This document shows, piece after piece, positions 3,143 through 53,140 of a stretch of DNA of 64,000 nt. Position numbers and translations under genes: made by a program. This stretch comes from Cenococcum geophilum (taxonomy: Eukaryota), in the NCBI GenBank assembly GCA_050273025.1, contig CP158635.1:15376001-15440000 (forward strand), written 5' to 3'. Position 1 is the first letter of the stretch, and the number at the start of each line of letters is the position of its first letter. A model generated the notes under the pieces. The model did no database searches. It worked only from the letters and a program-made list of their open reading frames with translations, and had not been told where the DNA came from.

Positions 3143-3407
3143 ATCCCTTTGTCTGGTAAAACGGACTTTTTGTATTAGGCGCTTTAGGCGCTCCTGCCTG
3201 GGTTAGCATGCTGCAGGCACCCTAGCTAGCGTGATTTTATTAGCAAGCCTCACCAAAGCGCGTTAATATTGCGATGCCGATAAAATACTGCAGAAGGCCA
3301 CCACCGAAAACACCTATTTTTTTTTTAAGGAAGTTGGGTAAAAAGTCGCGATATATGACGTTATAACTGTAGGTTTCCGCCCTTCCTCCATTAACCAGCT
3401 GCTGACT

Positions 3408-3728
3408 ATATAGGAAAATCCCCTACTAGAGTCCTCCCCTAAACTACCGCTACCTATCCACTTTATACGCGTTCTTAACGTTAATAAGGATAAGCTAGTA
3501 AAGGACCAGCTTAAGGTTATAAGGGAGGACGTGTAGTATACGTTAAATGAGATATATTAAGTGCTATAGGTCATTAAACGGTTTAGTTAGCGGTTATTTG
3601 GTATAGAGGATTAATTAAAGGCGGTAGAGAAGGACTTAAAGGAGGCTAAGTAGGACGCTGCACTAAAGGCTTAGTTAGCTTTAGAGTCTCAATATTAGGG
3701 GCGTAAGGAAGTAGAGGGCTTAAAATAG
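3408..3728 (+). pseudogene. Second, convergent ORF of the piggyBac-like element (about 106 aa, acidic, coiled-coil-like), RIP-inactivated
   Basis: One frame in which every stop is TAA/TAG (revertible to CAA/CAG). It reads ..KDQLKVIREDV*YTLNEIY*VL*VIKRFS*RLFGIED*LKAVEKDLKEAK*DAALKA*LALE with heptad-like periodicity and ends 4 bp from the transposase stop. Confidence 0.5.
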
Positions 3729-3794
3729 TTACCTAGTCGTCGCCTACTAAATAGAAGTTGTTAAAGTACTAAAGGCATAGAGGAAGCCTATAAG

Positions 3795-4172
3795 TGTAAG
3801 AGGCCAGCCTAACCGGAACGTATGATTATCTAATTAATAGTGTTACCGGTAAGTAGAAGGTAAGTTAAAGGTAAATAAAAGGTAAGTTAAAGGTAGAATA
3901 AGTTTTATATATTAAAGGATAAATGCTTCTAACTACTTCTATTTAGAGACTAATTGCTGGTTCTTCTCTAGAGGAGAACCAGCTCCCTATATAATCTTTT
4001 TAAGACACTAGTAAAACCCTTTACCCCTTATCTATCTAACTGTGTCTTTTAGAACGTAGATAGAATATAGGTAAGACCTCCTTCTGGAATATAGATAAGA
4101 CCTCCTTCTAAAACATAGATAAGACCTCCTTCTGTCTTATCTAATATATACCTTCTAGGGAATTCCGTTATA
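3795..4172 (-). repeat. 3' LTR (378 bp)
   Basis: TGTAAGAGGCCAGCC...AATTCCGTTATA. Contains three 24-bp GAATATAGATAAGACCTCCTTCT-type internal repeats and matches 13957-14334. Confidence 0.95.
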
Positions 4173-4767
4173 ATTACCTCCCCTTTAAGGGTCTTAGTCC
4201 TCCAAGACTTCACCTTTACTAAGCTTTTATAAAGTTCCGGCTAAAACCACTAGGGAAATTCTTAGTGGAAAGGTACTTTATAATGCGGCTTATAGCTAGT
4301 TCTTTACTAGCGTAGAACCTTACTTTATCCTTAATTCCTCTGCTCTTTTCCTACTATAGTTCCCTATAATACCTTTATAATGGAACTAAAATAATAATAA
4401 TAAAAATTGGATAGGATTTACCTTTCTTATTATAAGAGTTTGTTATAAGTTAATCTAGAGGTTGTCCTATATAACGCGTCTATAAGCTACCATCCCTATT
4501 TACCTAAAATAGATTCTGATAATAACGTTTTTATTTTAATTTTCTTCTAGTTTATAAGCTGTCGCCTCCTACGCGTCTTTTTATTAATAACACCATTCGT
4601 CTCGTCTTTTAGCAGACTGTTTCCTCTATATCTCCGCTTTTAGCTTCCGTATCTCTAGCTATTCTTTTATAGCTGCTTTATTCTCTTCTTATAATACGTC
4701 TATAAGTAATAGGATCCCTACCTTATCTTCTTATAATAATGCTAACTTCTTAGAGTATTCTCTTATA

Positions 4768-6050
4768 ATAGCTCGTGGTCCCCAGACCGGCGGCAGTATT
4801 ATTAATCTCCCGGTGACGCCCTAGACAGCGTCTATTGCTTCTACGGCAGTTTCCCTAAAATACTATTGTTGCTACATTTATACTCTTACGTAGAATCCTT
4901 CCTATGTCTGTAAGATGCCTCGCTCTAGCGAAAATAAATCTAAGTACTTCTATTATCGCAGTAGGAGAAAGACCTGCGTCCTAGTATTTCCTATTCCGTC
5001 CTATTCTAGATTTCGCTAATTATACTAGATCCCCGCTATCTATACGCATAAGACTTATAGGCTCTAATACGCCATCTAAGATTTCCGCCGATATCCTAAT
5101 AGTGACAGGCGGGGACAGAAGGTGTCTTCCCTCGTTTATAGACTCTTTAATTCTATAAGGGTTTCCACTACTATAGAGACGTAACGTTCTTGGATATATA
5201 GTGTCTAGGAGCGTATATGCGAACAGCTCGTCTTTAATAATAATATTTATACTCTTACGCGGGCTACTTTAGCCAGGTGAGTTTCTCTAGTAACTTACTT
5301 AGGAACTATGCTAACTCCTTTAGCTAATATCTCTCTAATCCCTGCTTAGACGCTAATTTAGAACCTAGGGATACTAAGGATAGCAATAAAGGTTAAGATA
5401 AACGTTCTCCTCGCCAGTCTCCCGCCCGTGCTGGTCCTTCTAGTACCCGTTATTCTAAGAAGAATATTAGTAGAAGTGCTAATGCTTCTAGGGATAGAGG
5501 AGCTAATAATACCGTTAATAATAACGTTAAGATAGAAGAGGAGGCTCCTATTACTGTTGCTAATATTTAAGTTATTACCTGGCTCTTTCCTTCTTATAGA
5601 ATAGCTTTATATAGTGCCTCTTAGGTGCCTTTAGGATGCCCTATTATTAGGAATTAACTTTATACTTTGGGGATGCCTTTATTCTAAGCTTTAGTAACAA
5701 TCTATATAAACGTAGTGCACTACTATAATCCCTATATATAATAAACGGGTAGTATTCCTATAGGTGCCTTATAATTCCTTAAAATTTCTAATTCTTTATA
5801 GGCTGTCCTTTTGCTTCTCTTCGTACTATTAACTCTACTGCGTATCTCCGGTGCTAGGCCAAATACTCTCCTTTTATCCCTAGGGGATCTTGCTAAATCC
5901 CTAAGGCCACTTCTTATAGTGCTACTGCTCCTTTTTATACAGCGTCTTCTTTAAATAGTATCCCTAGTAGTTCTTCTATAGATCCTTATAGGCTTCCTCT
6001 TACAGGATTCTAGGATCCCTATTATAATAGTAAAACGTTTCCGTTTTTAA
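4768..6050 (+). pseudogene. Antisense, two-intron accessory gene of the Gypsy element (N-terminal Cys/His-rich motif, acidic and Pro/Ser-rich tail), RIP-inactivated
   Basis: Introns 4984-5028 (GT..GCTAAT..TAG) and 5277-5323 (GTGAGT..GCTAAC..TAG) join three segments in frame. All stops are TAA/TAG. Confidence 0.7.
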
Positions 6051-9000
6051 TGCCTATACTTAATTTTATAGTTTTAATTTGCGGGGTCTTCCCTATTACT
6101 TTACCTGTGGTATATCCGGAACTATTTCTAAGTCTTTACCTTTAGTTCTTAAGAAGGTTTTAATTATAGTATTATATTTTGGCTAAAGGTACTCCTTAGG
6201 TTCCTAACTATTATGCGCCTAGGAGTATCCTTCCTAATAAACTAAAAATTCGCGCTTCTTCTAGCGCCATCTTTGGTCTAAAATGTCTTCTATATTCCAT
6301 TCCAGTTCCCTATTAATTTCGCTAAGTAGGGGCGGTTCTGCACTATCTTTTCTCTAATATAGCTCTAGCAAGGAAACATGAAATATAGGATATATTAGAT
6401 AAGATTTCGGTAATTCTAATTTATAGGCTTGGTTTCCTTTAGTTTTCTTAACTATCTTAAAGGGTCCGAGCTACTGGTAATCCAGCTTCTTCTTAATACG
6501 TTTTATTTGGATATTTTTTATAGACAGTAAGACTTCATCTCCTATCTTGAATTCTTTCGGCATATATTTTTTATTATAGTACCTTTTTTACACGGCCTAG
6601 GCGTCTAGTAAGTGCTTTTTAAGTTCCTCTCTGCGAATTCTTATTTGCTTAATTCTTTTGGACATTACTAGTGCCTCTTTTTTAGGAACGATGTCCTTAA
6701 TATTTTAGGGGTTATTTGCTTTTACCCCAAACAATGCTTTATAAGGGGTTATTTTTATACTACTGTGGATGCTTATATTATATACGTGCTACGCTAGAGC
6801 TAACTACAATGTCTAATTATTCTGTTGATAATTGATATAGTAGCGGAGGTAGTATTCCAATAACGCATTTAGACGCTCTATTTACCCATCTGTTTACAGG
6901 TAGAAGGTAGTGTTTATCCTTTACCGTATTTTTAATAAGAGATAGAATAAAGACTAAAATATACTGTTAAATACGGTGCCTCTGTTAGATATAATTCCCC
7001 TTAGCATGCTAAATGAGAGCCACCGTTCTAAAAATAGGTCTACTAATTCTGCTGCTGTGATCGTTATTATAATAGTAAAGTATTTTAAAAACTTTGTATA
7101 CCTGTTAACGATTACTAGGATAGCGTTAGCAACCTCTCTAGTTCTTATTTTAGTAGGGGGTAAGCCTATAATAAAATCTATTGTTAATTCTAATATAGGT
7201 CCCTATGGAATAGGAAGTACTAATAACTTGCTGTATAGGCGATGCCTAGATATCTGTATTCTTTAGCACGTATTATACCTTAATATATAGTCCTTAACCT
7301 CTTTAGACATTTTGTTCTAAAAGTATTTCCTTTAAACAGCCTTAAGGGTTCTGTTAGTACCGTAGTGACCCCTAAAAGGGTTGTTGTAGAAGACCTTTAG
7401 AATTTCGTCTTAAATCGCTTGGTCCTTTAAGACATATGCAGTACCCTTAAAGCGCAACAAACCCTTTTAGTCTTGCTGCTATAGCTTCTTAGTAACTCTA
7501 GCTAAGTTAGTCTCCACTATATCTTTCTACCTCTCCCTAGAGGCGAAGGCGTCCCTTTATTAAGCTTAAAGAAGAAGATCCGGAAAGGTTTTGTGTAGAT
7601 TACTTACTTCTATTTTACCTACCGCCATTATAGACTTAAGGCGTGGCATAAGACGTTTTAAACTATTAGTGCTAGCAAATTCTCTTACCGTTGTGTAGTA
7701 TGCTATGCTGCAAATAGGTATCTTGCCTATCCCCCTTAGATCTAAGAACTCGTAGCTAATACGCCGTTAAGTTAAAGGTGCCGCGACACCTCTAGTATAT
7801 CCTATAGAATTCTCGCTAATTTTAGGGTACGCTAACTTTGTGATGTCTGCTTGGTCTATAACCTAGTCTATAACTATATCCTACGGCTCTATAATTATGT
7901 TGCTTCGTAGCTATATCGCTAGGACCTCTACCCTATTATAAAATTCTATAGTTCTAGGGAAAGAGTCTTCTTTCTTCCTAAGCAAATTTTGCAATATGGG
8001 GATTATTTCCCCTATACTATCCTAGATCCTCCCTGTCTTATAATCCGGACATCTTAATAACCTATTAGTAGGATTTGTCTTTTCTAGGTGGTACATAATC
8101 TTAAAATTATACTGTAATAGTGCCTTTGCCTATTTAACTTGTTAACTGCTTAACATCTTTATAGTTATAAAGTATTCCAGGTTATTATAGTCTGTAAGGA
8201 CTTTAATAGGATAATTGCTTCCTATATAATAATGTCACTAGTGCTTTATTACTGCGATTATCGTGAGTAGCTCCTAGTTATATATTATGTAACACTACTC
8301 TATAGGGGTTATTTTCCTTAACTAAAACGCTATAGGATGCTATTTTCCGTCTTTTAATTGAGATATAATTGCCCCTAGGGTAAAGCCGGATGCATCCGTT
8401 TTAAGGTATATATATAGCTCCTAGTAGAAGTGTATTAGGATAGGCGCCGATATAAATAAATCCTTTAACTGGTCTATAGCCTGCTTAGCAGCTTCCCTAA
8501 ATATAAAGGGTCTTAACTTCCTGCCATTCTTAAATCCTTTTAGTAGATTGGTAATTGGGAGTATTACTTATAAGTAGTAAACAATAAACGTTTAGTAGAA
8601 GTTTGCCGTGCCTAAGAAAACCTATACTTCTCTAAATATTATAGGGTAGGGCCATTTCCTAATAGCGTCTACCCGACTTTTCTCTATTAACACTTTGTTA
8701 ACGCTAACGATAAAGCCTAAAAAATTAATGCTAGTAGTATAAAACGTATACTTTTTTAGGTTTATATAGAGCTTGTATTCCCATAGTCTTTCTAATACTA
8801 TTTGCACGTGGTATATATATGCTTTATAGTTATTAAAGTAGACTATAATGTTATTAAGGTAGACTATATATATCGTATCTAATAGGCCTAATAATACCTT
8901 ATTAATATAGGCCTGAAATATTGCTAGTGCGTTAGTGAGCCTAAATAGCATTACTAGGTACTTAAAGTGGCCGTACCGTATTTAGAACGCCGTTTTCTAT

Positions 9001-9332
9001 TTATCACCGGCTTTAATCCGGATTTAATAGTATGCATCTTTTAAATCCAATTTTATAAATATCTTCGCACCTAACAGCCTATTAATAAGCTCCCCTATTA
9101 AGGGTAATAGGTAGCAATTCTTTATAGTAATCTTGTTTAGCGCCCGATAGTTAATATAGAGGTAAAGGGTCCTATCCTTCTTGGGTATAAATATAATTGG
9201 CGCCCCTGCTAGGCTTATAGAGGGCTAAATCTATCCTCTTTAAAGATTGTCTACTATATATTAACGTAGTACCGCTAGCTTATTTTCTAATAGGTTATAC
9301 AGCGGTCTAAAAGGAGGTTGTTTATCCCCTAT

Positions 9333-9598
9333 CATCAGGAAATTTTTTTTTGGGCACGTTGTTGCAAACGAAAATCGGGGTCTGCAAAACCTGCGTAAGT
9401 CGCAAATTTGGCAATTTGCGGCGATTTGCAGCAATTTGCTACAAACACATAGGCTACCTATGCACGCGCCTGCCTTATCTATGTGTTTGTAGCAAATTGC
9501 TGCAAATCGCCATAAATTACCAAAATTGCGACTTACGCAGGTTTTGCAGACCCCAATTTTCGCTTGCAACAATATGCCTAAAAAAAAATTTCCTAATG
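9333..9598. repeat. 266-bp foldback (MITE-like palindrome) forming the left end of element A
   Basis: Arms of about 120 bp: 9333-9452 is the near-perfect reverse complement of ~9478-9598, including a second TIR copy (AAAATTTCCTAATG) ending at 9598. Confidence 0.92.
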
Positions 9599-10718
9599 CA
9601 GAGGCTCTGCATGAGGCTCTATATAAAGCTCTGCATGAGGCTTTACATAAAGCTCTGCACGAAGCTCTGCACGAAGCTCTGCACGAAGCTCTGCACGAAG
9701 CTCTACACGAAGCTCTACACGAAGCTCTACACGAAGCTCTACACGAAGCTTTGCACGAGGCTTTACACGAGGCTCTACACAAAGCTCTGCGTACAGAGGC
9801 TCTGCACGAGGCTCTACACGAAGTTCTGCACGAATTCGTGCACGAAGCTCTGCACGAAGCTCTACACGAAGCTCTACACAAAGCTCTACACGAAGCTCTA
9901 CACGAAGCTCTACACGAAGCTTTGCACGAGGCTCTGTACGAAGCTCTACACGAAGCTCTACACGAAGCTTTGCACGATGCTCTACACGAAGCTTTGCACG
10001 ATGCTCTACACGAAGCTTTGCACGATGCTCTACACGAAGCTCTGCGTACAGAGGCTCTACACGAAGCTCTACACGAAGCTCTACACGAAGCTCTGCACGA
10101 AGCTCTGCACGAAGCTTTACACGAAGCTTTGCACGAGGCTCTACACGAGGCTCTACACAAAGCTCTGGGTACAGAGGCTCTGCACGAGGCTCTACACGAA
10201 GCTCTGTACGAAGCTCTGCACGAAGCTCTACACGATGCTCTACACGATGCTCTACACGAAGCTTTGCACGATGCTCTACACGAAGCTCTGCGTACAGAGG
10301 CTCTACACAAAGCTCTACACGAAGCTCTGCACGAAGCTTTACACGAAGCTTTACACGAGGCTCTACACGAGGCTCTACACAAAGCTCTAGGTACAGAGGC
10401 TCTGCACGAGGCTCTACACGAAGCTCTATACGAAGCTCTGCACGAAGCTCTACACAAAGCTCTACACGAAGCTCTACACGAAGCTCTACACGAAGCTCTA
10501 CACGAAGCTCTACGTACAGAGGCTCTGCACGAAGCTCTACACGAAGCTCTGCATAAAGCTCTATATGAAGCTCTACACGAAGCTCTGCATAAAGCTCTAC
10601 GAAGCTCTACACAAAGCTCTACATATAGAGGCTCTGCACGAGGCTCTGCGCGAAGCTCTACACGAGGCTCTGCGCGAAGCTCTGCATACGGAGGCTCTAC
10701 ACGAAGCTCTACACAAAG
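9599..10718. repeat. 12-bp minisatellite (CACGAAGCTCTR)n
   Basis: About 90 units, with periodic 15-bp variants GCTCTGCGTACAGAG / GCTCTGGGTACAGAG. Confidence 0.97.
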
Positions 10719-10888
10719 CCTTTGTGTGTGTGCGCGCGACACACTACTATCGGGTCCCCGCTATATTCCCGATAGCCTCTACACGTGCCTCTGCCAAGTA
10801 TACCCCCTATATACACCTAGGTAGCCACCTCATTTTTTACCCTTCCTTACATCCTCCCTACCTAGGAAGACACCAGAACGACAGCCAG

Positions 10889-11400
10889 CAGACGACCGTC
10901 GCCGGAGCCAGACGACCGTCGCCAGAGCTAGACGATCGTCAGAGCTAGACGACCGTCGTCAGAGCCAGACGACTGTCGCCGGAGCCAGATGACCGTCGCC
11001 AGAGCTGGACGACCGTCGCCGGAGCCAGATGACCGTCGCCAGAGCTAGACGACCGTCAGAGCCAGACGACCGTCGTCAGAGCTAGACGACCGTCGCCGGA
11101 GCCAGATGACCGTCGCCAGAGCTGGACGACCGTCGCCGGAGCCAGATGACCGTCGCCAGAGCTAGACGACCGTCAGAGCTAGACGACCGTCGCCGGAGCC
11201 AGATGACCGTCGCCAGAGCTGGACGACCGTCGTCAGAGCCAGATGACCGTCGCCAGAGCTGGACGACCGTCGTCAGAGCCAGATGACCGTCGCCAGAGCT
11301 AGACGACCGTCAGAGCCAGACGACCGTCGCCGGAGCCAGATGACCGTCGCCAGAGCTAGACGACCGTCGTCATCGCCACACGACCGTCGCCAGAGCCATA
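10889..11400. repeat. 21-bp minisatellite AGACGACCGTCGCCAGAGCYA-type with an internal palindrome
   Basis: About 25 units, some shortened to 18 bp. The core GACGAC-C-GTCGYC is self-complementary. Confidence 0.95.
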
Positions 11401-11475
11401 CGACAACCGTTCGAACGACCAGCCAGCGAACACGATAAACGATTCGATCGATCGATTGAATCAAGGTGACATAGA

Positions 11476-11604
11476 CAGGTAGGCACAGACAGGTAGGCAC
11501 AGATAGGTAGGCATAGACAGACAGACAGGTAGGTAGGTAGGTAGGTAGGTAGGTAGGCAAGCAGGCAGGTAGGCAGGCAGGCAGGCAGGTAGGTAGGTAG
11601 GCAG
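11476..11604. repeat. (AGGT)n/(AGGC)n/(AGAC)n tetranucleotide microsatellite
   Basis: Directly visible run. Confidence 0.9.
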
Positions 11605-13956
11605 ATGATTTAGAGCCTCCGCGAGAGGCTTCCCCTTAACGCCTAAAGTAGATAGCTCTATATTTTATATAGTTATAATATAAATATATTTAAAAGTATA
11701 CTATAGAAATCTATGGAAATATGTGATAATTTGGTTATTATATAATATAATTATAATTTATATAGTTACAATTTGTACAGTTTTTACAATTCGTACAATT
11801 CGTACAATTTGTACAATTTGTATAGTTTTTACAATTCGTATAATTCGTATAATTCGTACAGTTTGCGCACTATTTATTTATAGGGTAGCATTTTACCGCA
11901 ATTTGCTATTAGGTGCTGCAAATTTATTGTAAAACGCGCAAATTGCTGTTAGGGTGCTGTAAACTTGTTGCAAAACGTGCGTTTTGCGCAAATTGCTATC
12001 GACCATATCCACCTGCCGCAACCGTACGGTTTGTGGCAATTTGCCGCAAACCGCAACAACGAGCCCCAAAAAAAATTTCCTGATGATGTCTATTTTATGC
12101 TTAACTAATATAGGGTCGGGTAAGGTTTATACAGCCTCTTTACTAGAAATATCCTCTAAGTCTATATATTTCTGTAAAATCTCTAGTTCCTTAACTACGC
12201 ATAGCCGGATATCCGAAAATGAATATCCCGTGTCCCCATTCTTAGTGTTAAGAGTGGCATATATGGCATATACCCACCCTTCTTCTTATATATGGTTTAA
12301 AAAAGTCTCTTAATCTTTAACTATAATACGTGGTTAAGACTTCCGATGTTAATACAAGGCTAAAGGCCAATTAATGTCCGGATTAACTTGGCAAAGCTAT
12401 AGGTATCCTAAAATAAGGTTATACCCCTTAATTTCTGCGGCATAGAAGCGCATCTCCTATATATCCTATAGACTATCGCGGTCCTAGCTAGCTATGGAAA
12501 AAGCCTGTTCCCTATAGCATAGAATCTAGTAGCCTTTAATGCTTTAAATGGTGCGTACCTATAAGCCGCTAAGGTCTAAATCTAATTCTTTTACTAGTAA
12601 TTAAGAAATAAACCTTATACTCGCGCCGCTATCTATAAGGCAGTCTCGCGTTACCTATTTATTATTAACTTAAATAAAGACAGGAATAACTATATAGCAG
12701 TTTACTTCCTCCTTCTCTTACTAGCCTAGTATAAGGGAGTAAAGATCTACTAGGCTGTCTCTTTTTTTAATTAGGCCGACTCTTACTTCTTCTGCCAATA
12801 GAAGCGGCTTATATGGCCCTTCTTGCCATAGTTATAATAGGTACGTGTCTCCCGGTTCCCCTTCTACGGATTAGGTCTCTACCTATTATTATTTTAGGGT
12901 TAACTAGCGTTGCTCTAGGGCTGTGAGGCCTGCTCGCGTTATCCTTCTGTAGAGTGGTTAGGTCGGAATCTGCCCCTATTATTAAAGCTAGGTCTAGTCC
13001 TACGCTCTTTATTGTTAGCGTCTTGTTCCTTTTACTTACCTAGATGGTCTCTTTTAGCACTCTTAATCCGAGTAGCTTTAGAGATAAGCTTTTCTTAAAA
13101 GGTAGGAATTTCGCCCTTTTCTTATATGGCCTGTTAAATCTTAGGTTGTAGCTTAGTAAGTAGCTAGTGAAGTTATATAGCGTTATCCTATAGATCTAAG
13201 TAGGGTATATTGTCTTCTAGTTCTTCTAAGTAGTTTATAAACTGGACTATAGTCTGACCATCCCGCTATTTGGCGTTATGGTATCGCTGGTTGTAGTTTA
13301 TTTCTTAATTAGTAGGGTCTTGGACCTAATTAACTAACTAGGTCCTAAGTTCGCTAAATTTAAAGGGTATAGTAAGTTTCTTCTTATAGCGTGTCTATGA
13401 ACTCTTAATAGTACTATGTAGAAAGGTAAAAGTAATTAGTGTCTAATTATACTTATTAGAGTAACGTTTTAGATCTAGCCGAAACTTAATTTCGTATTAT
13501 TAGATAAAATAATTGCAGTTCTAAAGACTATTACTATAGTACTTATTAGGTTCCTTTATACGGAATTTAGGTTTTTTTAACGTTATAGCATAGTATAGCG
13601 TTACCCCTTTGAGTCCGCTTCGTGTCTAGGGTGTCTATACTTCCCCTAATTGTCCTTATAATTGTTCTTGGTAGTTTTAATATACTTATCTTAATTATAT
13701 CTCCAACTCCTTTGTTTTTTTATAGGGTCTTATATAGCGACCGCTCTAATAACTCCCTAGCGGTAATTATTTCTAAAGGTCTTATAAGGTTAGACAGACT
13801 AGCCGTAGCTTCTTTATAGGAAGAGGGAATACGCTCCTCTAAGGAGACTCTTTAAGCCTCTTATGGTGAGGGCGTTGCTTTATAGGGTACAGGAGTATAG
13901 TTTGTTATTATTAATTAATAGCCGTACGTTCCTAACGGATTATAAACGATTAGAAT

Positions 13957-14334
13957 TATAAGAGGCTAGCCTAACCAGAATATATAATTATCTAATTAAT
14001 AGTGTCACTGGTAAGTAAAAGGTAAGTTAAAGGTAAATAGAAGGTAAGTTAAAGGTAGAATAAGTTTTATGTATTAAAGGATAAATGCTTTTAACCACTT
14101 CTATTTAGAGACTAATTGCTAATTCTTTTTTAGAGGAGAACTAGCTCCCTATATAATCTTTCTAAGACACTAGTAAAACCCTTTACCCCTTATCTGTCTA
14201 ACTATGTCTTTTAGGACGTAGATAAAATATAGGTAAAACCTCCTTTTAGAATATAGATAAGACCTCCTTTTGGAATATAGATGAGACCTCCTTCTATCTT
14301 ATCTGATATGTACCTTCTAGGGAATTCCGTTATA
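13957..14334 (-). repeat. 5' LTR (378 bp)
   Basis: TATAAGAGGCTAGCC...AATTCCGTTATA. The differences I checked against the other LTR are C/T or G/A transitions. Confidence 0.95.
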
Positions 14335-14726
14335 ATAAGCCTTATATTTATATACTATTTACCTAACCTTTACTATAAGCTTCTTTACCTCCTTCCATCT
14401 ATATATCTAGCACTTTAGTAGGCTTTTATAGCCTTACTTCCTTATAAAGCTTTTAATAGAATGGTAAGTTCGCGTCTTATACCATTAAATTGTAGGCAGT
14501 GGGGTTTTAGCTATAACGTAGGTGGTTTTTTAATTCGTTTTATTTTTATAACCAGGCCCAATACTAGATTAATATTACCTATATTTTAGTAAGTTTTGAC
14601 AAAGAAGACGCTTAGTATCGTGCTTATTTAGGCCTATCTTTTAACTGCCTATAATAATAAGGTTCTATTATCGGGAAAATATTCGCAGGATGAGATTTAA
14701 GTAGACTTTAGTTTTCGCGTTTCGCG

Positions 14727-15122
14727 TAATTAATATATAATTTAACTAACTCGATACGCAATTAACTAACTTAACACGCAATTAACCAACTTAATATATA
14801 ATTTAACTAACTTAATATATAGTTAACCTACTTAATATACAATTTAACTAACTTAATACGCAGTTGACCTACTTAATATATAATTTAACTAACTTAATAC
14901 GCAGTTAACCTACTTAATATACAATTTAACTAACTTAACACGCAGTTAACCTACTTAATATGCAATTTAACTAACTTAATACGCAGTTAACCTACTTAAT
15001 ATACAATTTAACTAACTTAATACGCAGTTAACCTACTTAATATATAATTTAACTAACTTAATACGTAATTAACCTACTTAATATATAATTTAACTAACTT
15101 AATATGTAGTTAACCTACTTAA
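14727..15122. repeat. 21-bp minisatellite with an alternating 42-bp higher-order unit
   Basis: CAATTTAACTAACTTAATACG alternating with CAGTTAACCTACTTAATATA. Confidence 0.9.
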
Positions 15123-15263
15123 TAACTTTAAAAGCTAACTATATATTTCTTAACGTGCGATTAAAGTAAAGTTATATACTATATATTTAACTATTATATA
15201 TAATCCTATATAATCTTATATAATCTTATACAATCTTATATAATCTTATAGTCTTATTACTTA

Positions 15264-15727
15264 AAGGCTCTACACGAGGCTTTATATAAAGCTTTACGTA
15301 CAGAGGCTCTATACGAAGCTTTATATAAGGCTCTTTATAAGGCTCTATATAAAGCTTTGCATATAGAGGCTCTGTATAAAGCTCTATATAAAGCTTTATA
15401 TAAAGCTCTATACAAAGCTCTATATAAAGCTCTGCACAAAGCTCTATACGAGGCTCTATACGAAGCTCTACATAAAGCTCTATATAAAGCTCTACACGAG
15501 GCTTTATATAAGGCTCTGCGTAAGGCTCTACGCGAAGCTCTACGTATAGAGGCTCTGCATAAGGCTTTGCGAGAAGCTCTGCGTATAAAGGCTCTGCACG
15601 AGGCTTTACGAGAAGCTCTACGTATAAAGGCTCTATACGAGGCTCTGCGAGAAGCTTTGCGTATAGAGGCTTTATACAAGGCTCTGCGCGAAGCTCTATA
15701 TATAAAGGCTCTATATAAAGCTCTATA
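15264..15727. repeat. RIP-mutated copy of the 12-bp minisatellite
   Basis: (TATAAAGCTCTA)n variants of CACGAAGCTCTG, followed by the same unique spacer TATCGGGTCCCCGCTATATTCC as at ~10748. Confidence 0.9.
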
Positions 15728-15860
15728 TCGGGTCCCCGCTATATTCCTAATAGCCTCTACACATGCCTCTACCCTATATAACTACCTTATTTTTTACCCT
15801 TTCTTCCTTCTTTATATCCTCCCTACTTAGGGAGGCACTAGAACGGCAGCTAGTAGAGAA

Positions 15861-17000
15861 CCGTTGCTAGAACTAGATAACCGTCACTAGAACTAGATAA
15901 CCGTTACTAAAACTAGATAACTATCGCCAGCTAGACGACTGTTACTAGAACTAGATGACTATTACTAGAACTAGACGACTGTTGCTAACTAAATAACCGT
16001 TACTAGAACTAAATAACCGTTACTAGAGCTAGACGACCGTCGCCAGAACTAGATAACCGTTGTTAGCGCTAGATAACCGTCGCTAGAACCAGACGACCGT
16101 CGCTAGCTAGACGACCGTTACTAGAACTAGACGACCGTTGCTAAAGCCAGACAACCGTCGCCAGAACTAGACGACCGTCGCTAGAACTAGACGACTATTA
16201 TTAGCCAGATAACTGTTACTAGAACCAGACGACCGTTACTAGAGCCAGACGACTGTCACCAGAACTAGACGACCGTTGCTAGCGCTAGACGACCGTCGCC
16301 AGAACTAGACGACCGTCGCTAGCTAGACGACCATTACCAGAACCAGACGATTGTTGCCAAAGCTAGACGACCGTCGCCAGAACTAGATAACCGTTGCCAG
16401 CGCTAGACGACCGTCGCCAGAACTAGACGACCGTCGCTAGCTAGACGACTGTTACCAGAACCAGACAACTGTTGCTAGAGCTAGATGACCGTCGCTAGAA
16501 CTAGACGGCCGTCGCCAGAACCAGACGACCGTTGCTAGAACTAGACGACTGTTGCTAGCTAGACGACCGTTACCAGAACCAGATAACCGTTGCCAGAGCC
16601 AGACGACCGTCGCCAGAACTAGACGACCATTACCAGCGCTAGATAACCGTTGCTAGAACTAGACGACCGTCGCTAGCTAGACGACCGTTACTAGAACCAG
16701 ACGACCGTTGCTAGAGCTAGACGACCGTCGCTAGAACTAGACGACTGTTACTAGCGCTAGACGACTATTGCTAGAACTAAACGACCGTCGCTAGCTAGAC
16801 GACCGTTACTAGAACTAGATAACCATTACTAGAGCTAGATAACCGTCGCCAGAACCAGACGGCCGTCGCTAGAACTAGACGACCGTCGCCAGAACTAGAC
16901 GACCGTTACTAGAACTAGACAACTATTGCTAGCCAGACGACTATTACTAGAACTAGATAACCGTTGCTAGAACTAAACAACTGTCGCTAGAGCTAGACGA
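15861..17000. repeat. RIP-mutated, longer copy of the 21-bp GACGACCGTCG minisatellite
   Basis: AGACGACCGTCGCCAGAACT units interspersed with 17-bp variants. Confidence 0.92.
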
Positions 17001-17063
17001 TAATAACTAGCTAGCTAACACTATAAACGATTTAATTAATTAATTAAATTAAGGTAGCATAAA

Positions 17064-17525
17064 CAGGTAGGTATAAATAGGTAGATGCTAATAGGTAGGT
17101 AGATATAGATAGGTAGGTAGATATAGATAGGTAAGTAGATATAAATAGGCAGGTAGATATAGATAGGTAAGTAGATGTAGATAGGCAAGTAGATATAGAT
17201 AGGTAGGTAGATATTAATGGATAAGTAAATATAAATAGGTAGGTAGATATAAATAAGTAGATATAAACAAGTAGGTAGATATAGATAGGTAAGTAGATAT
17301 AGATAGGTAAGTAGATATAGATAGGTAAGTAGATATAGATAGGTAAGTAGATATAGATAGGTAAGCAGATATAGATAGGTAGGTAAATGTTAACGAGTAG
17401 GTAAATATAGATAGGTAAGTAGATATAAATAGGTAGGTAAATGTAAACAGGTAGATATAGATAGGTAGGCGATGTAGATAGGTAGGTAGATATAAATAGG
17501 TAGGCGATATAGGTAGGTAGGTAAG
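17064..17525. repeat. 16-bp repeat (AGGTAAGTAGATATAG-type) derived from an AGGT microsatellite
   Basis: Directly visible, in the same position relative to the 21-bp array as 11476-11604. Confidence 0.85.
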
Positions 17526-19972
17526 TTAATAGGTATAATAGATAGGTATAAAAGAACCATCGCTATATTATATTAAATTATCTAAAATAATAATATTTAT
17601 TTTGCTAGCCTTATAAATAGCTTTAAAATAGCTTTTATTTATTTAAAATATGCTATTAGTATAAAAGAGGTAAATATAATTATGGTTACTAAATACGTAG
17701 ATTACTAGCAGGTTGCGCGTAGGTTACGCGCAGGTTACGCGCAGGCTGCGCGCAGGCTGCGTGTTAAAAAAACACGACATAGGCTAGTCGGTCGAGTTGC
17801 CAAATGACCTTAACTACGCGCTAATTGCGTTAACTACCAACCATTGAGGCCATTAAAAGGGTACCATATTTTGCCGATGATGCTAATTATATACGGAAAC
17901 AGTAGTGGGTTTAAAGGTGCTTCCTTAATATCTAGAAGATCTTCTTACTAATAATATAGGTGTTAATTATAGCCGTATTAAGCGCCTAGAAGAATAAGGG
18001 TAGCTAGGTGCGTATAGTAGTAATCTAGGTAGTATAGTAGCTTTGAAGCTAATTATAAATATTAACGCCGCCTATTTAGTTATTGTAGTTAATAGAGAGC
18101 CTAGGTAGCGTTAACTTCTTAATTAAATTATTGCCCTAAACATTAGCTACTAGTTTCTTAAGGAAGGAATTATATACCTATAGCCGACGTTAATTAACTT
18201 TATTAACGTCCTTATTACTATATAGGTGAATTATCGTTAAAAACCGTACTAAATTCTTATCCTATTATATAATTAAAAGCACCAAATTAAATACGCCGAT
18301 AACTACTCCTGTAATAAAGTTAAATGGTAGCCTTTCCTTCTTTTTATTAGCCCTTTTATACACCTTTAGATAGTCCTTTAAGTTTAATTAAGCTGTGCTA
18401 GCTATAGTAATTCTAAGTTGTTAAAGCACCTAGAGTAACGGAATATTTGTAAAGTAGTTATCTAAAAATAGGCAAAATTAACGAGCCTAAAGAGGAAGCT
18501 GTTAGGTAAGGTAGAGGACGTACTTAGAGGTATTTAAGAGAACAATATCTTAATAATCTGTTTGAGAAGGAAGCCTAAAAAAGTAGCCAGGTAAGGTAAA
18601 TATAAAGCTATAGCAATATCTATATTAACAAAGGCTTATTATCTTAAAGCCCTCTAGTACTAGCTTACTAGGTAATTTAATTATAGCTATAGATTGTCTA
18701 GTAAACCTTACTATTATCTTATTAAAGCTAACTATAGATTTAGGTATAATATACTTTCTAAACGCCTTGCCCAAAGGAGTTGTTAATGGCTTAATTTTCT
18801 TAAAGACTTAACGTTTAACGCCCTCTAGTGGAGGTGGTGAGATATAAAAGAAGCGCTTAAGTTACTCCTATCTTTTTAGGCCTATAAATAAGCTAATTAA
18901 GTGTCTAGGATATTTAGAATCTACGGCCTAAAGATCTAGCACCTAAGTGCCTTTAAAGACGCCTATATAGATAATAAGCCCTACCTAAATTATTAATTCG
19001 CCAGCGGAGGTCTCCTTTTATACCCGTAATTGTTTACCCATATATTATCCCAATTGGTAATATCCGCCAGCATTTTAAAAGGCTGCATATAGGTTTATAT
19101 TAATCGCGAGCTTCTTAAATATACTAACACTAAAGAATAGTAGAAATACTTAAATTGGCAGGTTCTATCTAGATCTATATCCGCTAGACACTATACTAAT
19201 CTAATCTGCTAGCGTATAATAAGCATAGCGCTTATAATCCTTATTTTAATTAGAAAGGTTATTAGATTTAACGTCCGCGTTAATGCTACTAATAGGCTTA
19301 CTAGTACGCCGAGCGGCGAATATTAACTTATTTAGAAGGTTAATAACTTTAAAATCTAGTTTAGAAATAGCAGCTATAGGCTCCTATAAAGTAGGAATAG
19401 TAGGAAGGCCTATTCTTATAACTTCTTTAGCTAATAGCTCTGGTAGTTTAGTCTTATCTACCTTATCTGCCTTATCCTTAGCAGTCTTACTGCGGGCCTT
19501 AAAAGAGGCTTTTAATTCGTCCTCGATATCCTCTGTCTAGCTACTTAGCTAAGCCTCCACTGCCTACTGCGTAGCTACTGCCGACACGCTATCGTGTGTA
19601 TACTGCGTTACTTAAAAGGATTGTGAATAGGACTCCTAGGCTTAAGGTACTTTTAGAGGCTTTGGAAGCTTTAGAGCCAAAGGAGTATAACTTTTTTTAG
19701 GCGGCATAAGGACGATATTTTACTGGCAATTTAATAATTAAATAGATGGCAACAATATTAAAGCTTTTAGATTAACTATACTAAATATTATAGGCTTCCT
19801 GGCCACGTCGCTACTATTTACCGCAATATTTAAGTGTTAATAAGGCGCTAGTACCCTTGCTACTGCACTAACTAGAGGCTTTAACACTAAGCTCTATATA
19901 GTATAGAGCCTCTAGATTGGCTTATAAGGCGTATATATACAAAAAGTCTATAAAAACTTGCCAGATAAAGGG

Positions 19973-45618: not shown

Positions 45619-48004
45619 ATGGCCGAAGCAGCATTAGGGCTGGCGCTTGGAGTGCTGCCAATCATCATCGAAGCTATCAAAGCCTACGAGTCGACTTACG
45701 ACAAAATAAAGACATTTCGTCAAGTTTCTCGTGAAGTTGGAAGACTTTTGAAGAAATTTGAAAGGCAGATGCAATTCTTTGAGAATGAATGCCACCTGCT
45801 GCTGAGGTTGGTGTTGAAGAATGACGGTTGGAAGGCTAAGGAGATGATGGAAAATCCGGCGCATCACCTTTGGACAGATCATGATCTTCACAACCGAGTG
45901 ACAGAACTTCTGAACAACAATTATGGCACTTGTAAAAGTATTGCAGAGGAAATAAAAATATCTCTAGACGGACTTGAGGAGGAGTTGATATATCTTGATA
46001 AGGTCGTAAATCAGCAAAGGTTTAAGGTACTCTACATAGCTCAAATCCAGCAAGGCTTAGAATCCGCGTCTTTTGCTGGGAACCGGAACATAGATATCAG
46101 CTAACTATGTCCAGGGCGAATCGATAAGAGACACTATTCGGCGTTTACGCCAGTCTGTGATAGTCTCCTTTGAAAAAAGTCGATATGAGAAGAAACTCGA
46201 AAATTTGCGCAATCAAAATGCGGACCTCCGCCTCCTGCGATCTCAAATCTCAGATTTTCAGCACCAAACTTGCTTCTCAAGAGGGTATTCCGGCTCAAAT
46301 TTAATGCCGTCCACGTATCATACGGTGCAGCAAGCATCACGTACACTTTATGATGCTCTGACAATGTCATGGTGCTGTTCTGATCCTGCCCATATAAGGC
46401 ACGGCGCGAAGCTATATCTGGATGCGAAAGTGGAAGAGACGGTTCAGCTCAACTTAGTAATTTCAAATCAGAATAGCGATCCCGCTATTAACCAAAGGTA
46501 CTTCTACCTCCACTCTGCAGGTCGAATCAGCCCTCGCAAGACCCTTATTGTTTTAAACTAATCCTATGGGCAATTTATAGTGAAAGTAGAACCGAATGCG
46601 CAATAAGGCTTCATGTAAGATCCTCGAAGAATCCTATACCGGATTTGCCAACACCCATGACTTCCCCTTCACCTTTAGCTACCGGAGAAGGTCCAAATAT
46701 ATCGCAAGACGAGAGAACTGGCCTGTTAACGAACTTAGCACAATATTCAAGGAAGGACGCCGCCCCTCCTCTGCTTGGGAGGACTAAGAAGCGAAGAAAA
46801 GTTCACTTCGAGAAATCTACCGATAACTGCACGGAGCCTGAACAACAGAAAGCTTCATTACCCCATAAAGCTGTGAAATCATCAAATATATCCGTACATT
46901 CTCTTGAAAGTCAAATGTCGGCGTTCATAAACCTTCAATACGCCAAGAACATGTGTGAGCATATGAATCAACATGTGCTCCCGTCAGTCTTTAGCAACGA
47001 CGTATATAGAGATGAGGTGCACCACTTGCCTTTAGGCTACCTGGAGGTTCCCGGGGGGTGCGAACATCTTTTTTATCACTCCAAGTCTGCTGAGGCCGAC
47101 ATGAAGAAGCGGGTCTCTATCCCTTAACCCGTCAACTTGGGCACGCAGGTTATCGATAAGAGTCCACCAATCAGATCGGTAGGATTCGGTAGCCGTGCTC
47201 AGGAATACACAATTCGGGGAGTGGCCAAGGCTTCTGGGGGGTTTTTTTCGCCGTCTTATTTGGGGGAATCTTATACTGAGTCTTCTGAACAAGATCTACA
47301 TCAATTCTAGCGTGATTAGAAGGCATGGTGGTGGTATATTTGATGGTTTAATTCTACGCGTTGTTCTGATTCTGGTGTTCGCGCACGGGCCTTCTACTCT
47401 GCTCGCCCTGACGGGTCAAGGGATAGTCGAATTATTGCGGCCATCCACCCAAGACACTCTAGACTTGGCCAGCCAACTGAAACTCGCTCACCGTATCGTT
47501 ACCGCTGTCCTACAGTATCAGTCGACTCCCTGGCTTAGCCAAGATTGGTGCCTGCAACAATTCACTTTCTTTGGATCCAGCAAAGAGCTGTCTGAAAAGG
47601 TGTTGCGAACACTCCATGTCAGCGTGGAACTCCCTAACAATGAGTGCAAAACATCTGTCTTGCCCATGGAGGGCATACAGGCAATCGGCTATGACTCTCC
47701 AGTCGACATGGAAGATGTGCAGCTTCTCTACGGTATCCGAAACATGACTCTGCACTGTTTAGGTGTTGCCTTGCTTGAACTTGGATACTGGAAACCTTTG
47801 GATTCTCATGATCTATTAGCAGTGCGCCGACTTGCCGCAAGCCGATCACCGCTAGGGCCAAAATATCAGGAAATAGTCCAGAAGTGTCTGGGTTGTGACT
47901 TTGGTCTTGGCATTGACCTTACGAAGACCGATCTGCAATGCGCGTTATATAACGACGTTGTATGTCCATTAGAAAGTATGATGGAAAGTCTAGGTATTTC
48001 CTAA
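45619..48004 (+). pseudogene. Protein with a HeLo-like/helical N-terminus and conserved fungal C-terminal domain, interrupted by a 302-bp MITE
   Basis: MAEAALGLALGVLPIIIEAIKAYE N-terminus. Introns 46027-46114 and 46498-46580 join the ORFs in frame. C-terminus LAHRIVTAVLQYQSTPWL..LGVALLELG..LGPKYQEIVQKCLGCDFG. Confidence 0.8.
47121..47422. mobile_element. MITE with piggyBac-type termini (302 bp)
   Basis: 14-bp TIR CCCTTAACCCGTCA / TGACGGGTCAAGGG (1 transition). AT at 47119-47120 and 47423-47424. Confidence 0.88.
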
Positions 48005-48625
48005 GGTTAGTGGTTGGAGTTTGGCCCTAGCCGTACGAACTATTCAGCTTTTAACATAAGGAGACTCGCCACAACGCTCAGAATTAATCGTATAGCCTTT
48101 TACGACGCATTTCTGAAGCCCCCTAGAACGGGCAGTGGAGTCTTTATAGCGTTACTAGGAAGAACCGTTACCGTGTTTTATTGTGCTTCCGAGAAGTACT
48201 CATTGTCGCCGCGCTAGATTTGCAAACTGGAGATCTTGGGATTGGGTGATACCCGTATGGTTTCCGTAGTGTTCATAGTATTTGTAGTACCGGTAGCAAT
48301 TCGCAGTATACTACATAGCTAGCTATAGATTCTGCTTTCATGTGTGGGTTGACAGCTTGCCTGGAAATACAATTGATTACTGGTTCTTCTTGAGCGTGGC
48401 TGTAGCCAGATTTGCTGTTGGTAATTAGTGCGCAAAGGGCCGGAAGACCTCGATTGTGGAGCAGCTGAGGCCATTCAAACAATCAAACATAGAAAAGCAG
48501 GGAAATGAAAGGGGATCCGAAGATTCTTTGATTATCACTTCTGATTATTCTGGCCCATCCCTATTGCGACATCCGCAGCTCGGCGCTATTTTCCAAGCGC
48601 CTGATAAAAGCCGTATTCCAGCGAC

Positions 48626-49122
48626 TCAAATCATAAGCCTCTCTACCTTGTCCTTCAACGATCTGATCTGGCCGGATAGATCACTAGCCTCGTTTGTCGT
48701 AATACTGGCTGCAATGACAGCCCGGCTCACTCCGCAAGCCCTTCCCAAAGCCGTTTTGCTGGGGACATATACGTAGGGGACGTTCTTGTCTTCACAGAGG
48801 AGAGGCAGGTGGAGCACGATGGCCAAAGGTGAGGTATCGGCGGCGAGAACGATGATCTCGGATACCCCACGGTTTAATGTCTTCGTCGCTTCGTTTGCTC
48901 CCTTTTTCAACTGTTCCCATATCAGTATCGCTATAGCTGCACGTGGATCAAAAGTGTGGATTTGGTGAAGAACGAACCTGACGATAGTGATTAGCTTGCT
49001 GCACAAGATCGAGAATCTCTTGAGATAAAGCGGAATCGGCCACAGGCCAAGCTATGTGCTTGTTAGTCGCATTTTACTTAACATGAGGTGGACTAGTGAA
49101 ACTTACCAGCGGCTTCTACCAT
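48626..49122 (-). CDS. SNU13: 13-kDa ribonucleoprotein-associated protein Snu13/15.5K (L7Ae family), 3 exons
   Basis: [82 protein letters not shown]. Confidence 0.97.
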
Positions 49123-49328
49123 GATTCGGTATGGTCAGTGATTGGTGTTGATTTTCTGTTCGCTCGCCCGAAGGTTCACTGCGTTGGAGGCACGCTCGAA
49201 AGTTCTAGCTTGTTAAAGTTAAGAGACAAAGTTGAAGAAGAAAAGCTAGCGTTTGGGCCGGATTTCAAGGATGGGTGTATCGGACTTTAGTAGGACCGTT
49301 AATCATGGCCTGTGCGTACATATGCCCG

Positions 49329-49436
49329 CACGTGACCCGTCTCTGATTCTGTTGGTGCGGATTTTTAATCGGTCCGCAAACTAACTAACTACATTTGTGC
49401 TATACCACCGATTGCGGCTGGAGAGCATCACGTGAC
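49329..49436. promoter_or_regulatory. Two CACGTGAC E-box (Cbf1-type) motifs upstream of SNU13
   Basis: CACGTGAC at 49329-49336 and 49429-49436, exactly 100 bp apart. Confidence 0.4.
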
Positions 49437-49457
49437 ACTGATGAGTCCTCTCGTTTA

Positions 49458-50002
49458 ACGTCCCTCCCTGAGTGGCGCAAAACCCCCCGTGCCGCAATAA
49501 ATCCATTGTTTACGCATCTCAACTCTCTCCCCCGCGATTCTATCAAGTTATAATTATAGTAGTAGTATTCTCTAGATATTTCCCTTTAGGAAACCAGTGT
49601 GCAGCCTAAAAAATACAATGCTTTTAATTATGCTGTTAGTCGTTCTTTTCAAAGCATCTAAAACTGCGTTAGCTTTACACCCCTGCTGCACCACGACTGT
49701 CTATAAAATTTCAAGCTTCGGAGTATTTAATTAATAAAACTATTACAGAATAAGGTAGTCCTAAGCTTTTAAAGACACTTAGCTCTTAAAAATATATATT
49801 CCGGATTTATCCGTAAGAAGGGGCCTATCCCTTAGCACGGTAGCGCCCTACGAGCAAGTAGCCCCGTGCGTAAAGGCTTTGAATTCCTAAGTACAGGCAC
49901 TAAATTCAGCTCTTCTAATTGGCTAGTTCTTATCGATACCGGTAGGACGCAAATTACCGTGCTAAGGGATAGGGTGTCTTGGCATGAGAATTTAGCGCGC
50001 TT
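49458..50002. mobile_element. Degraded Fot1/pogo-like transposon end fragment
   Basis: TA|ACGT start at 49458, typical of Fot1/pogo TIRs, followed by AT-rich RIP-like sequence. Confidence 0.35.
49829..49968. mobile_element. MITE with piggyBac-type termini (140 bp)
   Basis: Perfect 14-bp TIR CCCTTAGCACGGTA / TACCGTGCTAAGGG. AT at 49827-49828 and 49969-49970. Confidence 0.85.
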
Positions 50003-50886
50003 ACGTAGTGCAGTATTAGATGCTTAGCTGGCCGTATTGTTTTCTACGCTATGCCGAACAGGCTCCCAGGTGTGGCGCTCTTCTAGAAACGTCTTTGAAA
50101 GGTCACGTGCTGGCTATTTTTGGCAGCCGAGCGTTCCTTTGTTGCCAGCTGTCTCTCATACCGGCTCAGCGGCTGCCTCTGGTGCCTTTCCTATCACCAC
50201 AGTCGTAGACATGGACCGAGCCTGCCAGGTGCTGGCGCAAGGTCTCCCTCCAGATGTTCCTAAAACATGGGCTTATCAGAACGAGGCGATGTCCCTCTCT
50301 ATACGCTCTATTATCGCGCATACGGACAACCCTCTATAGAGGAAAAGGTCCAACGCCAGTAATACCTCACCCCAGAGGAAGAGAAAGCTCTTGTTGCTTT
50401 TTTATTACTAATATCTGATCTTGGATAGCCTGTTCGAATAAAGTATATACCTTCGCTAGCCTTCAGCCTCGCCCGCCGGCGGTCCACGACGGACAAACCA
50501 ATCAAGCCTCCAGGCAAGAACTAGGCTCGATCCTTTAAGATACGTCAACCCCAACTCAAAGCGAGGAGAGTTAGGTCGATAGACTGGAAACGTCACAAAA
50601 AGAATACATACGTCAAGATTACACACGGTTCGAAGTAATTGGCAGAGTAGTACATAATCCGGCCATTCTACCGGAAAATTGCTACAACATGGACGAGACG
50701 GGAGTCATATTAAGCATGCTTGGCTCCGTCAAAGTCCTTGTAAGTAAGGACGACCTACGTAACTATAGAGGCGCGGGAGTCAAGCGGACAATGGTAACTG
50801 CTATTGAGTGTGTCAGTGCTGATGGTAGGTCACTGCTCCCTCTTATAATCTGGCCAGCTTCAACCCACCGAAGCAACTGGACCTGA
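50003..50886 (+). pseudogene. Truncated Fot1/pogo (Tc1-mariner, DDE_1) element with 5' transposase from ATG 50211
   Basis: YLTPEEEKALV, KPPGKN*ARSF and ENCYNMDETGVILSMLGSVKVLV..VTAIECVSADGRSLLPLIIW. ACGT-start terminus at 50003. Confidence 0.88.
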
Positions 50887-52918: not shown

Positions 52919-53140
52919 GGTTTCTTTAATGGATTTGTGATAAGATGTGAGGCTAAAGAAATCTAATGAAATGTTCGACGGTCTCTTTAATGGGCTTGTG
53001 ATAAAATGTGAGGTTAAAGAAATCTGATGAAATGTTTGACGGTCTCTTTAACGGGCTTATGACAAGATGTGAGGCTAAAGAAATCTGATGAAATGTTCGA
53101 CAGTCTCTTTAATGGGCTTGTGATAAGATGTAAGGTTGAA
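52919..53140. repeat. 61-bp tandem repeat, about 3.6 copies
   Basis: Units start at 52919, 52980, 53041 and 53102 (GGTCTCTTTAATGGGCTTGTGATAAGATGTGAGGCTAAAGAAATCTGATGAAATGTTCGAC). Confidence 0.92.

Follow-up and report, generated by a model that had tools for sequence, protein, structure and literature searches.

AT on both sides: a strain-variable CCCTT-ended element in a DUF7580 gene of Cenococcum geophilum and its probable piggyBac affiliation

Transposons of the piggyBac superfamily move by a pathway in which the 3′ ends of the element are nicked, hairpins are formed over the flanking target bases, and the ends are joined to a staggered palindromic target. The flanks and ends carry complementary overhangs, which leads to seamless excision. 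Another system of small elements is represented in fungi by the MITEs (miniature inverted-repeat transposable elements) derived from Tc1/mariner, such as mimp of Fusarium, which are small, non-coding, multi-copy and bounded by terminal inverted repeats (TIRs), duplicate TA at their insertion sites, and are able to inactivate genes. The present analysis concerns E1, a 302-bp non-coding TIR element that interrupts the last exon of a DUF7580 (PF24476) gene in Cenococcum geophilum. The element and its surroundings were studied in a stretch of 64,000 nucleotides (GenBank assembly GCA_050273025.1, contig CP158635.1, positions 15,376,001 to 15,440,000 of the forward strand). This whole stretch is referred to as the window, and positions are counted within it unless another locus is named.

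In the piggyBac literature, a TTAA target and its duplication are described as a general feature, together with CCC...GGG termini, of which the first C is conserved, and short TIRs (PMC5381638). The same paper lists the odd target site duplications (TSDs) ATAG, TTAT and ATAT, which are the 4-nt flanks seen in this window. In another study, Belfiori et al. (2013) described Ti-tr1 of Tuber indicum as an element with TA TSDs and no TTAA whose transposase resembles PF13843, and left its classification open (PMC3864998). The ISL2EU group of the PHIS superfamily is characterised by 5′-AT-3′ TSDs in an A-AT-T target, by TIRs usually starting with GG and by an IS5-like DDE transposase with THAP plus a YqaJ open reading frame (ORF), and was found in animals only in the survey that describes it (PMC4482050). 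In a literature search that did not include Repbase, Ti-tr1 was the only published 2-bp duplication found in piggyBac, and no AT-duplicating lineage was found described. For C. geophilum itself, a genome paper of 2026 reported DNA/PiggyBac as the group of transposable elements (TEs) least affected by repeat-induced point mutation (RIP) and as variable among strains; the words "TIR" and "MITE" are absent from its text, and its accessible part contains nothing on target-site duplications (PMC12910237).

E1 lies between the flanks CTAT and ATAG, and the local sequence reads ...CGGGTCTCTAT/CCCTTAACCCGTCA...TGACGGGTCAAGGG/ATAGTCGAA..., with slashes here and below marking the element boundaries or the insertion point. 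Filled and empty alleles were compared in four public sequencing runs (X2, X6, X8 and X10) of the 24 listed for window 46650-47900, with Logan contigs placed on 46400-50400 at a likeness of 85 or more; 341-455 contigs per run were placed on this 4-kb stretch. Three of the four runs (X6, X8 and X10) contained a joint from 47118 to 47423 that skips exactly 304 bp, with the ends AT..GG and two letters that fit either side. In X6 the empty allele is carried by a 2881-bp contig that covers 46400-47118 and then directly 47423-49379, and in X8 by a 2575-bp contig that covers 46505-47118 and then directly 47423-49373; the same joint in X10 has 45 letters on its shorter side. The empty allele consists of ...GGGTCTCT followed by ATAGTC, that is, TCTATAGTC, with one AT versus two in the filled allele. 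Insertion of E1 has added 302 bp and a second AT at TCT/AT/AGTC. The filled allele is represented in X2 by two contigs without differences (46400-47145 and 47397-48781), which reach 25-26 nt into E1, and no contig with the 304-bp skip was present in that run. These results show that the insertion is a true polymorphism, filled in the window and in X2 and empty in X6, X8 and X10, and its presence and absence among strains mark it as recent.

The original prediction, made from the letters of the window without database searches, had held that 302+2 = 304 bp must be removed to restore the gene. Its coordinates and arithmetic were correct on re-reading of the sequence and the frames, and the empty site that it foresaw is the one that was found. 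It had also named the contrary outcomes, TCTAGTC or a 4-bp duplication, and neither was seen in the empty-allele contigs.

The consequences for the host gene are consistent with this length. PF24476 matches the C-terminal 193 amino acids of the protein, in the downstream part of the gene (E=1.4e-8). Among named proteins, those of Glonium stellatum (52% identity) and Coniosporium apollinis (51%) are most similar to this part, which points to a Dothideomycete. By tblastn, the Glonium protein aligned in four stop-free segments from 45634 to 47998, so that the host gene looks open apart from E1. The open frames on either side run from 46492 to 47127 in phase 1 and from 47183 to 48004 in phase 2, so that they can be rejoined only by a deletion whose length is 1 mod 3; a length of 304 bp satisfies this, and one of 306 bp does not. 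In the filled allele the host frame reads CGG GTC TCT ATC CCT TAA (...R V S I P, then stop), and the stop contributed by E1 lies two codons downstream of the insertion. A close relative of the host protein, P0001 (347 aa, from a cluster of 31 member sequences), is uninterrupted over the site: it reads ...VSIVELL... (DMRKQVSIVELLRPS; longer excerpt SKSAEVDMRKQVSIVELLRPSTQD), and its residues 1-155 correspond to 46657-47121 and its residues 155/156-347 to 47423-48001, with zero residues lost or gained. Thus, the S-I-V junction expected after removal of 304 bp is found in a relative, the frameshift expected after removal of 306 bp is confirmed, and the view of an otherwise intact gene holds. Collectively, the alleles and the frames show that the E1 insertion truncates the host gene in some strains.

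E1 itself was characterized by its ends and by its abundance. An inverted repeat search returned arms at 47117-47134 and 47409-47426 (18 nt, 94% complementary), which are made up of the TIR, identical at 13 of 14 positions, and the palindromic flanks CTAT/ATAG. A scan of the whole window with the E1 TIR pattern gave two matches, both of them the element's own ends, a result of little weight for a pattern derived from E1. The three internal ORFs (58-87 aa) had no Pfam match at E<=0.1, and Rfam gave no match at E<=1 in 46000-49000. In all four runs compared, the summed contig depth over E1 was 240-760 versus 4.4-7.1 over the flanks; this is not a copy number, and the contrast between element and flanks places E1 in a multi-copy family. 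At 47117/47118, loose ends from other copies cluster in 7-12 of the listed contigs of each run, which indicates that, 3-4 nt beyond the CCCTT terminus at most, the other copies no longer resemble this locus. E1 has the properties by which a MITE is recognised: it is short (under about 800 bp), bounded by TIRs and devoid of coding capacity, and it is multi-copy, with a target site duplication and with empty sites. Compared to mimp-type MITEs, it has the same small non-coding TIR form and a 2-bp duplication, but TA is excluded for E1 by the empty allele.

Two further pairs of CCCTT ends were found in the window. The first belongs to E2, a MITE of 140 bp with the wider flanks gggcCTAT/.../ATAGggtg. 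Read in the opposite orientation, E2 is homologous to E1; the two have in common the subterminal blocks TATCGATAAGA..CCAAT.AGA and GAGCA.GTAG..CCCGTGCG, and parts resembling E1 and E2 are joined on opposite strands in some contigs. A joint from 49826 to 49969 skips 142 bp (140+2) in X6 (two contigs), X8 and X10, with short sides of 28-53 letters. These skips are consistent with a 2-bp duplication but are weaker evidence than those at E1: the surroundings are repetitive, and the skips may represent paralogous empty sites because the long bridging contigs end at about 49373-49379. The segments 49344-49481 and 49884-50017 are high-copy repeats in all four runs (summed depth 330-520 versus about 6 in single-copy flanks), and loose ends cluster at 49344, indicating that E2 lies inside or beside another repeat family.

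The second pair delimits a candidate large element, probably the one that the original prediction had in mind. Its left end at 3145 reads tgctTTAT/CCCTTTGTCTGGTA, and its right end at 19972 reads, as reverse complement, agggATAT/CCCTTTATCTGGCA, with the outer flank ATAT. Between the two ends, 12 of 14 positions agree, and the remaining two differ by transitions, the change that RIP would be expected to leave. About 800 bp inside the right end lies a RIP-degraded transposase core of the PF13843 family, which occupies one frame; the in-frame stops listed (60 of 66) are all TAA or TAG. This remnant shares 33-35% identity with intact PF13843 proteins (E 1e-54 to 1e-64). TAT/CCCTT is the sequence at all six ends of E1, E2 and the candidate large element, and TTAA occurs at none of them. 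The TIRs of the three differ after CCCTT, as had been proposed when a second family with the same behaviour was postulated. The affiliation of the CCCTT elements with a piggyBac-type transposase is an addition to that observation.

Related elements outside the window were obtained with a profile of intact PF13843 relatives, which retrieved 24 metagenome loci. The same profile matches solved structures of the piggyBat transposase (9c0f, E=3e-30) and of the Trichoplusia ni piggyBac transposase (6x67, E=8e-18). Two-ended TIR scans of these loci set no condition on the flanks; one such scan listed 16 pairs, with chance pairs kept in the count. Transposase-containing elements in six loci (L003, L004, L006, L008, L016 and L022) and a MITE in L021 have CCC...GGG ends with AT on both sides, and PF13843 was present in every two-ended CCCTT/AT element found with a transposase. 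The ends are CCCTT...AAGGG in all but L022, which begins CCCATGGG. An intact single-ORF element is found in L004 (TIR CCCTTCGTTCGTAT), and the TIR CCCTTAACCTGTA of the transposase-bearing elements in L006 and L008 is identical to the E1 TIR at 11 of 13 positions. The PF13843 element in L022 is more distantly related (32% identity to the query), with TIRs of at least about 50-70 nt from CCCATGGGCT and the flanks TAT/../ATA; its long TIRs recall those of fungal piggyBac-like elements of Tuber and Paracoccidioides. AT stands on both sides of every related element examined except one. Other flanks border four more TIR pairs in the loci and two in the window; these six are of low complexity or enclose no transposase, and they were taken as chance matches.

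Individual ends were then scored with a TIR-pattern scan of the loci, in which two family TIRs and those of E1 and E2 were used with up to 2 substitutions. Of 33 matches, 30 were preceded by AT, which leaves 27 independent ends after three same-site duplicates are collapsed; the three matches without a preceding AT were also without the family subterminal sequence. TTAA was found at none of the 27 ends. At positions 3100-3640 of L021, two CCCTT-type elements stand head to tail with a single common AT (...CGAACGAAGGG-AT-CCCTTCGTTCG..., that is, AAGGG-AT-CCCTT), as expected if one element had inserted into the flanking AT of the other.

Taken together, these results suggested that E1 is quite probably a MITE of a fungal piggyBac-superfamily lineage with CCCTT...AAGGG ends and an AT target, which in the window always lies within TATA. 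E1 is tied to piggyBac by inference from its ends: the shared CCCTT, the AT flanks and the similarity of its TIR to those of elements of other fungi. Compared to piggyBac and piggyBat, the related autonomous elements have one PF13843 transposase each, Cys-rich at its C-terminus (L004; PF13842 in P0012), and they share the CCC...GGG ends with the conserved first C, the short TIRs and a target that is a short AT-only palindrome. The DDD transposase is found in elements with the same kind of ends (the remnant in the window and L004), E1 itself being non-coding. The differences are the duplication, which is AT (2 bp, from the E1 empty allele) instead of TTAA (4 bp), the ascomycete hosts and the lack of coding capacity in E1. 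Judged by transposase homology, the CCCTT elements belong to a variant piggyBac lineage and are not canonical members. Ti-tr1 is similar in its ascomycete host, PF13843-like transposase, lack of TTAA and 2-bp duplication; it differs in TA instead of AT and in its 52-bp TIRs (PMC3864998), and the reported TA may be the AT pattern shifted by one base.

Several observations weigh against this reading. The weakest link is that no autonomous element with the TIR of E1 itself was seen in the window, where no partner with this TIR was found elsewhere; because of this, the step from E1 to piggyBac depends on the similarity of the ends. No copy of E1 or E2 was detected by blastn in any of the 24 loci, which indicates that the loci come from other organisms. 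A two-ended TIR pair was absent from 15 of the 24 loci at the thresholds used, and the two sides of the MITE in L011 differ, with AT at one and AA at the other. At the 27 ends AT is invariant, and the TATA context is only a mild preference (T at -3 in 10 of 27). For the candidate large element, the left end is the less secure of the two, as it depends on the 12/14 match with two transitions and on the AT flanks; by a rough estimate, about 0.04 such matches would be expected by chance among the window's AT-flanked CCCTT sites, a value too large to neglect. Finally, the AT duplication is also a hallmark of ISL2EU (PMC4482050), and every AT duplication with CCCTT ends has the same sequence as a blunt insertion of TCCCTT...AAGGGA between A and T.

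This last identity is the basis of an explanation without any duplication, in which a 304-bp element (TCCCTT...AAGGGA, or its one-base shift) inserts blunt between A and T of TA/TA. The filled and empty sequences are then identical to those of the AT duplication, the AAGGG-AT-CCCTT arrangement in L021 is allowed by both, and a precedent for insertion without TSDs is provided by Spy, a member of another superfamily that inserts in AAA/TTT (PMC4482050). Blunt insertion is nonetheless improbable: the conserved terminus of piggyBac-type elements is the C of CCC (PMC5381638), and the conserved block of the elements studied here begins at CCCTT, with a variable base before AT (T 10, A 7, C 6 and G 4 of 27 ends). 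The established piggyBac chemistry, by analogy, would also favour a staggered palindromic target. An equally low probability was assigned to E1 being a MITE of the ISL2EU group, unrelated to the piggyBac remnant in the window. E1 shares with ISL2EU the AT duplication within a short AT-rich palindrome, and because E1 is non-coding, the mobilising enzyme can only be deduced indirectly. However, the CCC ends and the T-AT-A context at this locus differ from the GG-starting TIRs and A-AT-T target of the animal elements (PMC4482050), and PF13843, not a PHIS DDE/THAP protein with YqaJ, is the only transposase family found inside the CCCTT/AT elements. Pfam scans of the window gave no DDE_Tnp_4-type, PHIS or Tc1/mariner transposase among the frames covered (32 of 48 ORFs of at least 70 aa in the TE-rich parts, 33 of 53 ORFs of at least 110 aa in 23900-60300, and the read-through frames of most of the candidate large element, at 3145-9446, 11400-15301 and 17400-20101).

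A Tc1/mariner-type origin, in which TA is duplicated around an element TCCCTT...AAGGGA in a CTAG target, requires a one-base shift of the boundary that gives TA on both sides, and it recalls the TA TSDs described for the piggyBac-like Ti-tr1 (PMC3864998). It predicts TCTAGTC, a 306-bp difference and a frameshift, whereas the contigs give a 304-bp skip and TCTATAGTC and the orthologue keeps S-I-V; a TA duplication is refuted for E1. A 310-bp element with CTAT...ATAG inside its TIR was also rejected: its removal restores the frame, but the resulting R-V-F-E-L-L is two residues short of the orthologue, and the contigs skip 304 bp. The allele comparison itself could be questioned if the empty allele came from a paralogous gene copy or an assembly artefact at another locus, since the data are k-mer contigs placed at 85% likeness and a repeat element breaks contigs. 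This is very improbable in view of the bridging contigs, which are 2.6-2.9 kb long, differ from the window at 4 (X6) or 13 (X8) letters over 614-719 bp upstream and by about 2.5% downstream, have single-copy flank depth (6.45 and 7.1) and provide the sole flank cover in X6 and X8; both junctions of the filled form are, in addition, seen in X2.

If E1 belongs to the piggyBac-type lineage as proposed, a DDD transposase acting in trans would bind its CCCTT TIRs, and joining of the element's 3′ ends to the target would involve a stagger of 2 nt, in place of the 4 nt that is canonical at TTAA; AT would thereby be left on both sides. Excision could, by analogy with piggyBac, be seamless, since AT is self-complementary like TTAA. 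The empty alleles could just as well be ancestral sites into which E1 had never inserted. On a broader scale, the balance tilts slightly toward the view that a whole ascomycete clade of piggyBac has exchanged its hallmark (AT with a 2-nt stagger for TTAA with a 4-nt stagger), that it is still active through MITEs that knock out genes strain by strain, and that it has gone unrecognised since surveys filter on TTAA or dismiss ATAG, TTAT and ATAT flanks as mutated TSDs. TTAA is treated as defining for piggyBac and is used as a filter in mining; a pipeline of 2025 required a TTAACC-like motif (PMC13461360), and an AT lineage would be invisible to such pipelines. An AT lineage, if real, would provide a piggyBac-type system whose target occurs far more often, and it would raise the question of how the hairpin and overhang chemistry of seamless excision works with a 2-nt palindrome. 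For the fungus, the data show a multi-copy, strain-variable MITE family that truncates a gene in some strains.

Table 1. Features at the E1 site, elsewhere in the window, and in the metagenome loci (positions in the loci are those of each locus)
Feature	Position	Strand	Characteristics	Flanks	Basis
Host gene	45619..48004	+	multi-exon fungal DUF7580 (PF24476) protein gene, last exon interrupted by E1		frames, homologues, Pfam
Premature TAA stop	47125..47127	+	contributed by E1 to the host frame		sequence, frames, translation
E1	47121..47422	.	302-bp non-coding TIR element (MITE); multi-copy in the species, strain-dependent presence at the site	CTAT/../ATAG	
E1 left TIR	47121..47134	+	CCCTTAACCCGTCA		repeat search, TIR-pattern scan
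E1 right TIR	47409..47422	-	reverse complement CCCTTGACCCGTCA, 13/14 versus left		repeat search, TIR-pattern scan
AT duplication, left copy	47119..47120	.			single AT in empty allele
AT duplication, right copy	47423..47424	.			sequence and empty-allele joint
E2	49829..49968	.	140-bp MITE, perfect 14-nt TIR CCCTTAGCACGGTA	CTAT/../ATAG	CCCTT...AAGGG pair scan
Candidate large element	3145..19972	-	with nested RIP-mutated Ty3/gypsy and tandem arrays		listing of AT-flanked CCCTT sites
piggyBac-type transposase core (PF13843)	17956..19158	-	RIP-degraded		Pfam, stops read as X, E=6.3e-18
L004 element	5087-7724		2638 bp, perfect 14/14 TIR, one intact 727-aa PF13843 ORF	aAT/../ATa	
L006 element	5066-7642		TIR CCCTTAACCTGTA	tAT/../ATt	
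L008 element	4706-7635		TIR as in L006	cAT/../ATt	
L003 element	5157-11394			tAT/../ATg	
L016 element (L018 = same site)	5087-11615			tAT/../ATc	
L022 element	4846-7806		long TIRs from CCCATGGG	tAT/../ATa	
L021 element	3156-3637		482-bp MITE	gAT/../ATg	
L011 element	3033-3313		281-bp MITE	AT one side, AA other	

Within the candidate large element, a nested Ty3/gypsy long terminal repeat (LTR) retrotransposon, RIP-mutated, occupies 3789-14336, with LTRs at 3789-4174 and 13951-14336 that are 386-bp direct repeats of 90.7% identity. Its pol region on the minus strand of 3147-9446 includes RVT_1, RNase H, an integrase zinc domain, SH3 and a chromodomain. A 35-nt inverted repeat pair at 9331-9365 and 12053-12087 (94% complementary) encloses arrays of 12-nt and 20-nt tandem repeats (about 9560-11450), and a 120-nt hairpin is formed by 9333-9452 and 9479-9598 (92% complementary); related 20-nt arrays occur again at 15265-17000. 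The segment 9331-12087 may represent a foldback structure or a further TIR element.

E1 is located in gene-rich sequence of an ordinary kind that is bounded by RIP-mutated islands. Genes nearby (28097-38380, 48629-49051 and 55759-56736) include those for a BEACH/PH_BEACH protein with WD40 repeats, a subtilase with an I9 propeptide, an L7Ae-family protein and SYF2. The segment 54001-55000 has 72.5% G+C and degenerate 30-nt repeats, with long frames on both strands (53740-55455 minus and 53828-55189 plus) that have no Pfam match. Tandem repeats are present in 58580-59305, as four copies of a 181-nt unit (66-92% identity to the reference copy), and in 52919-53142, as three copies of a 61-nt unit.

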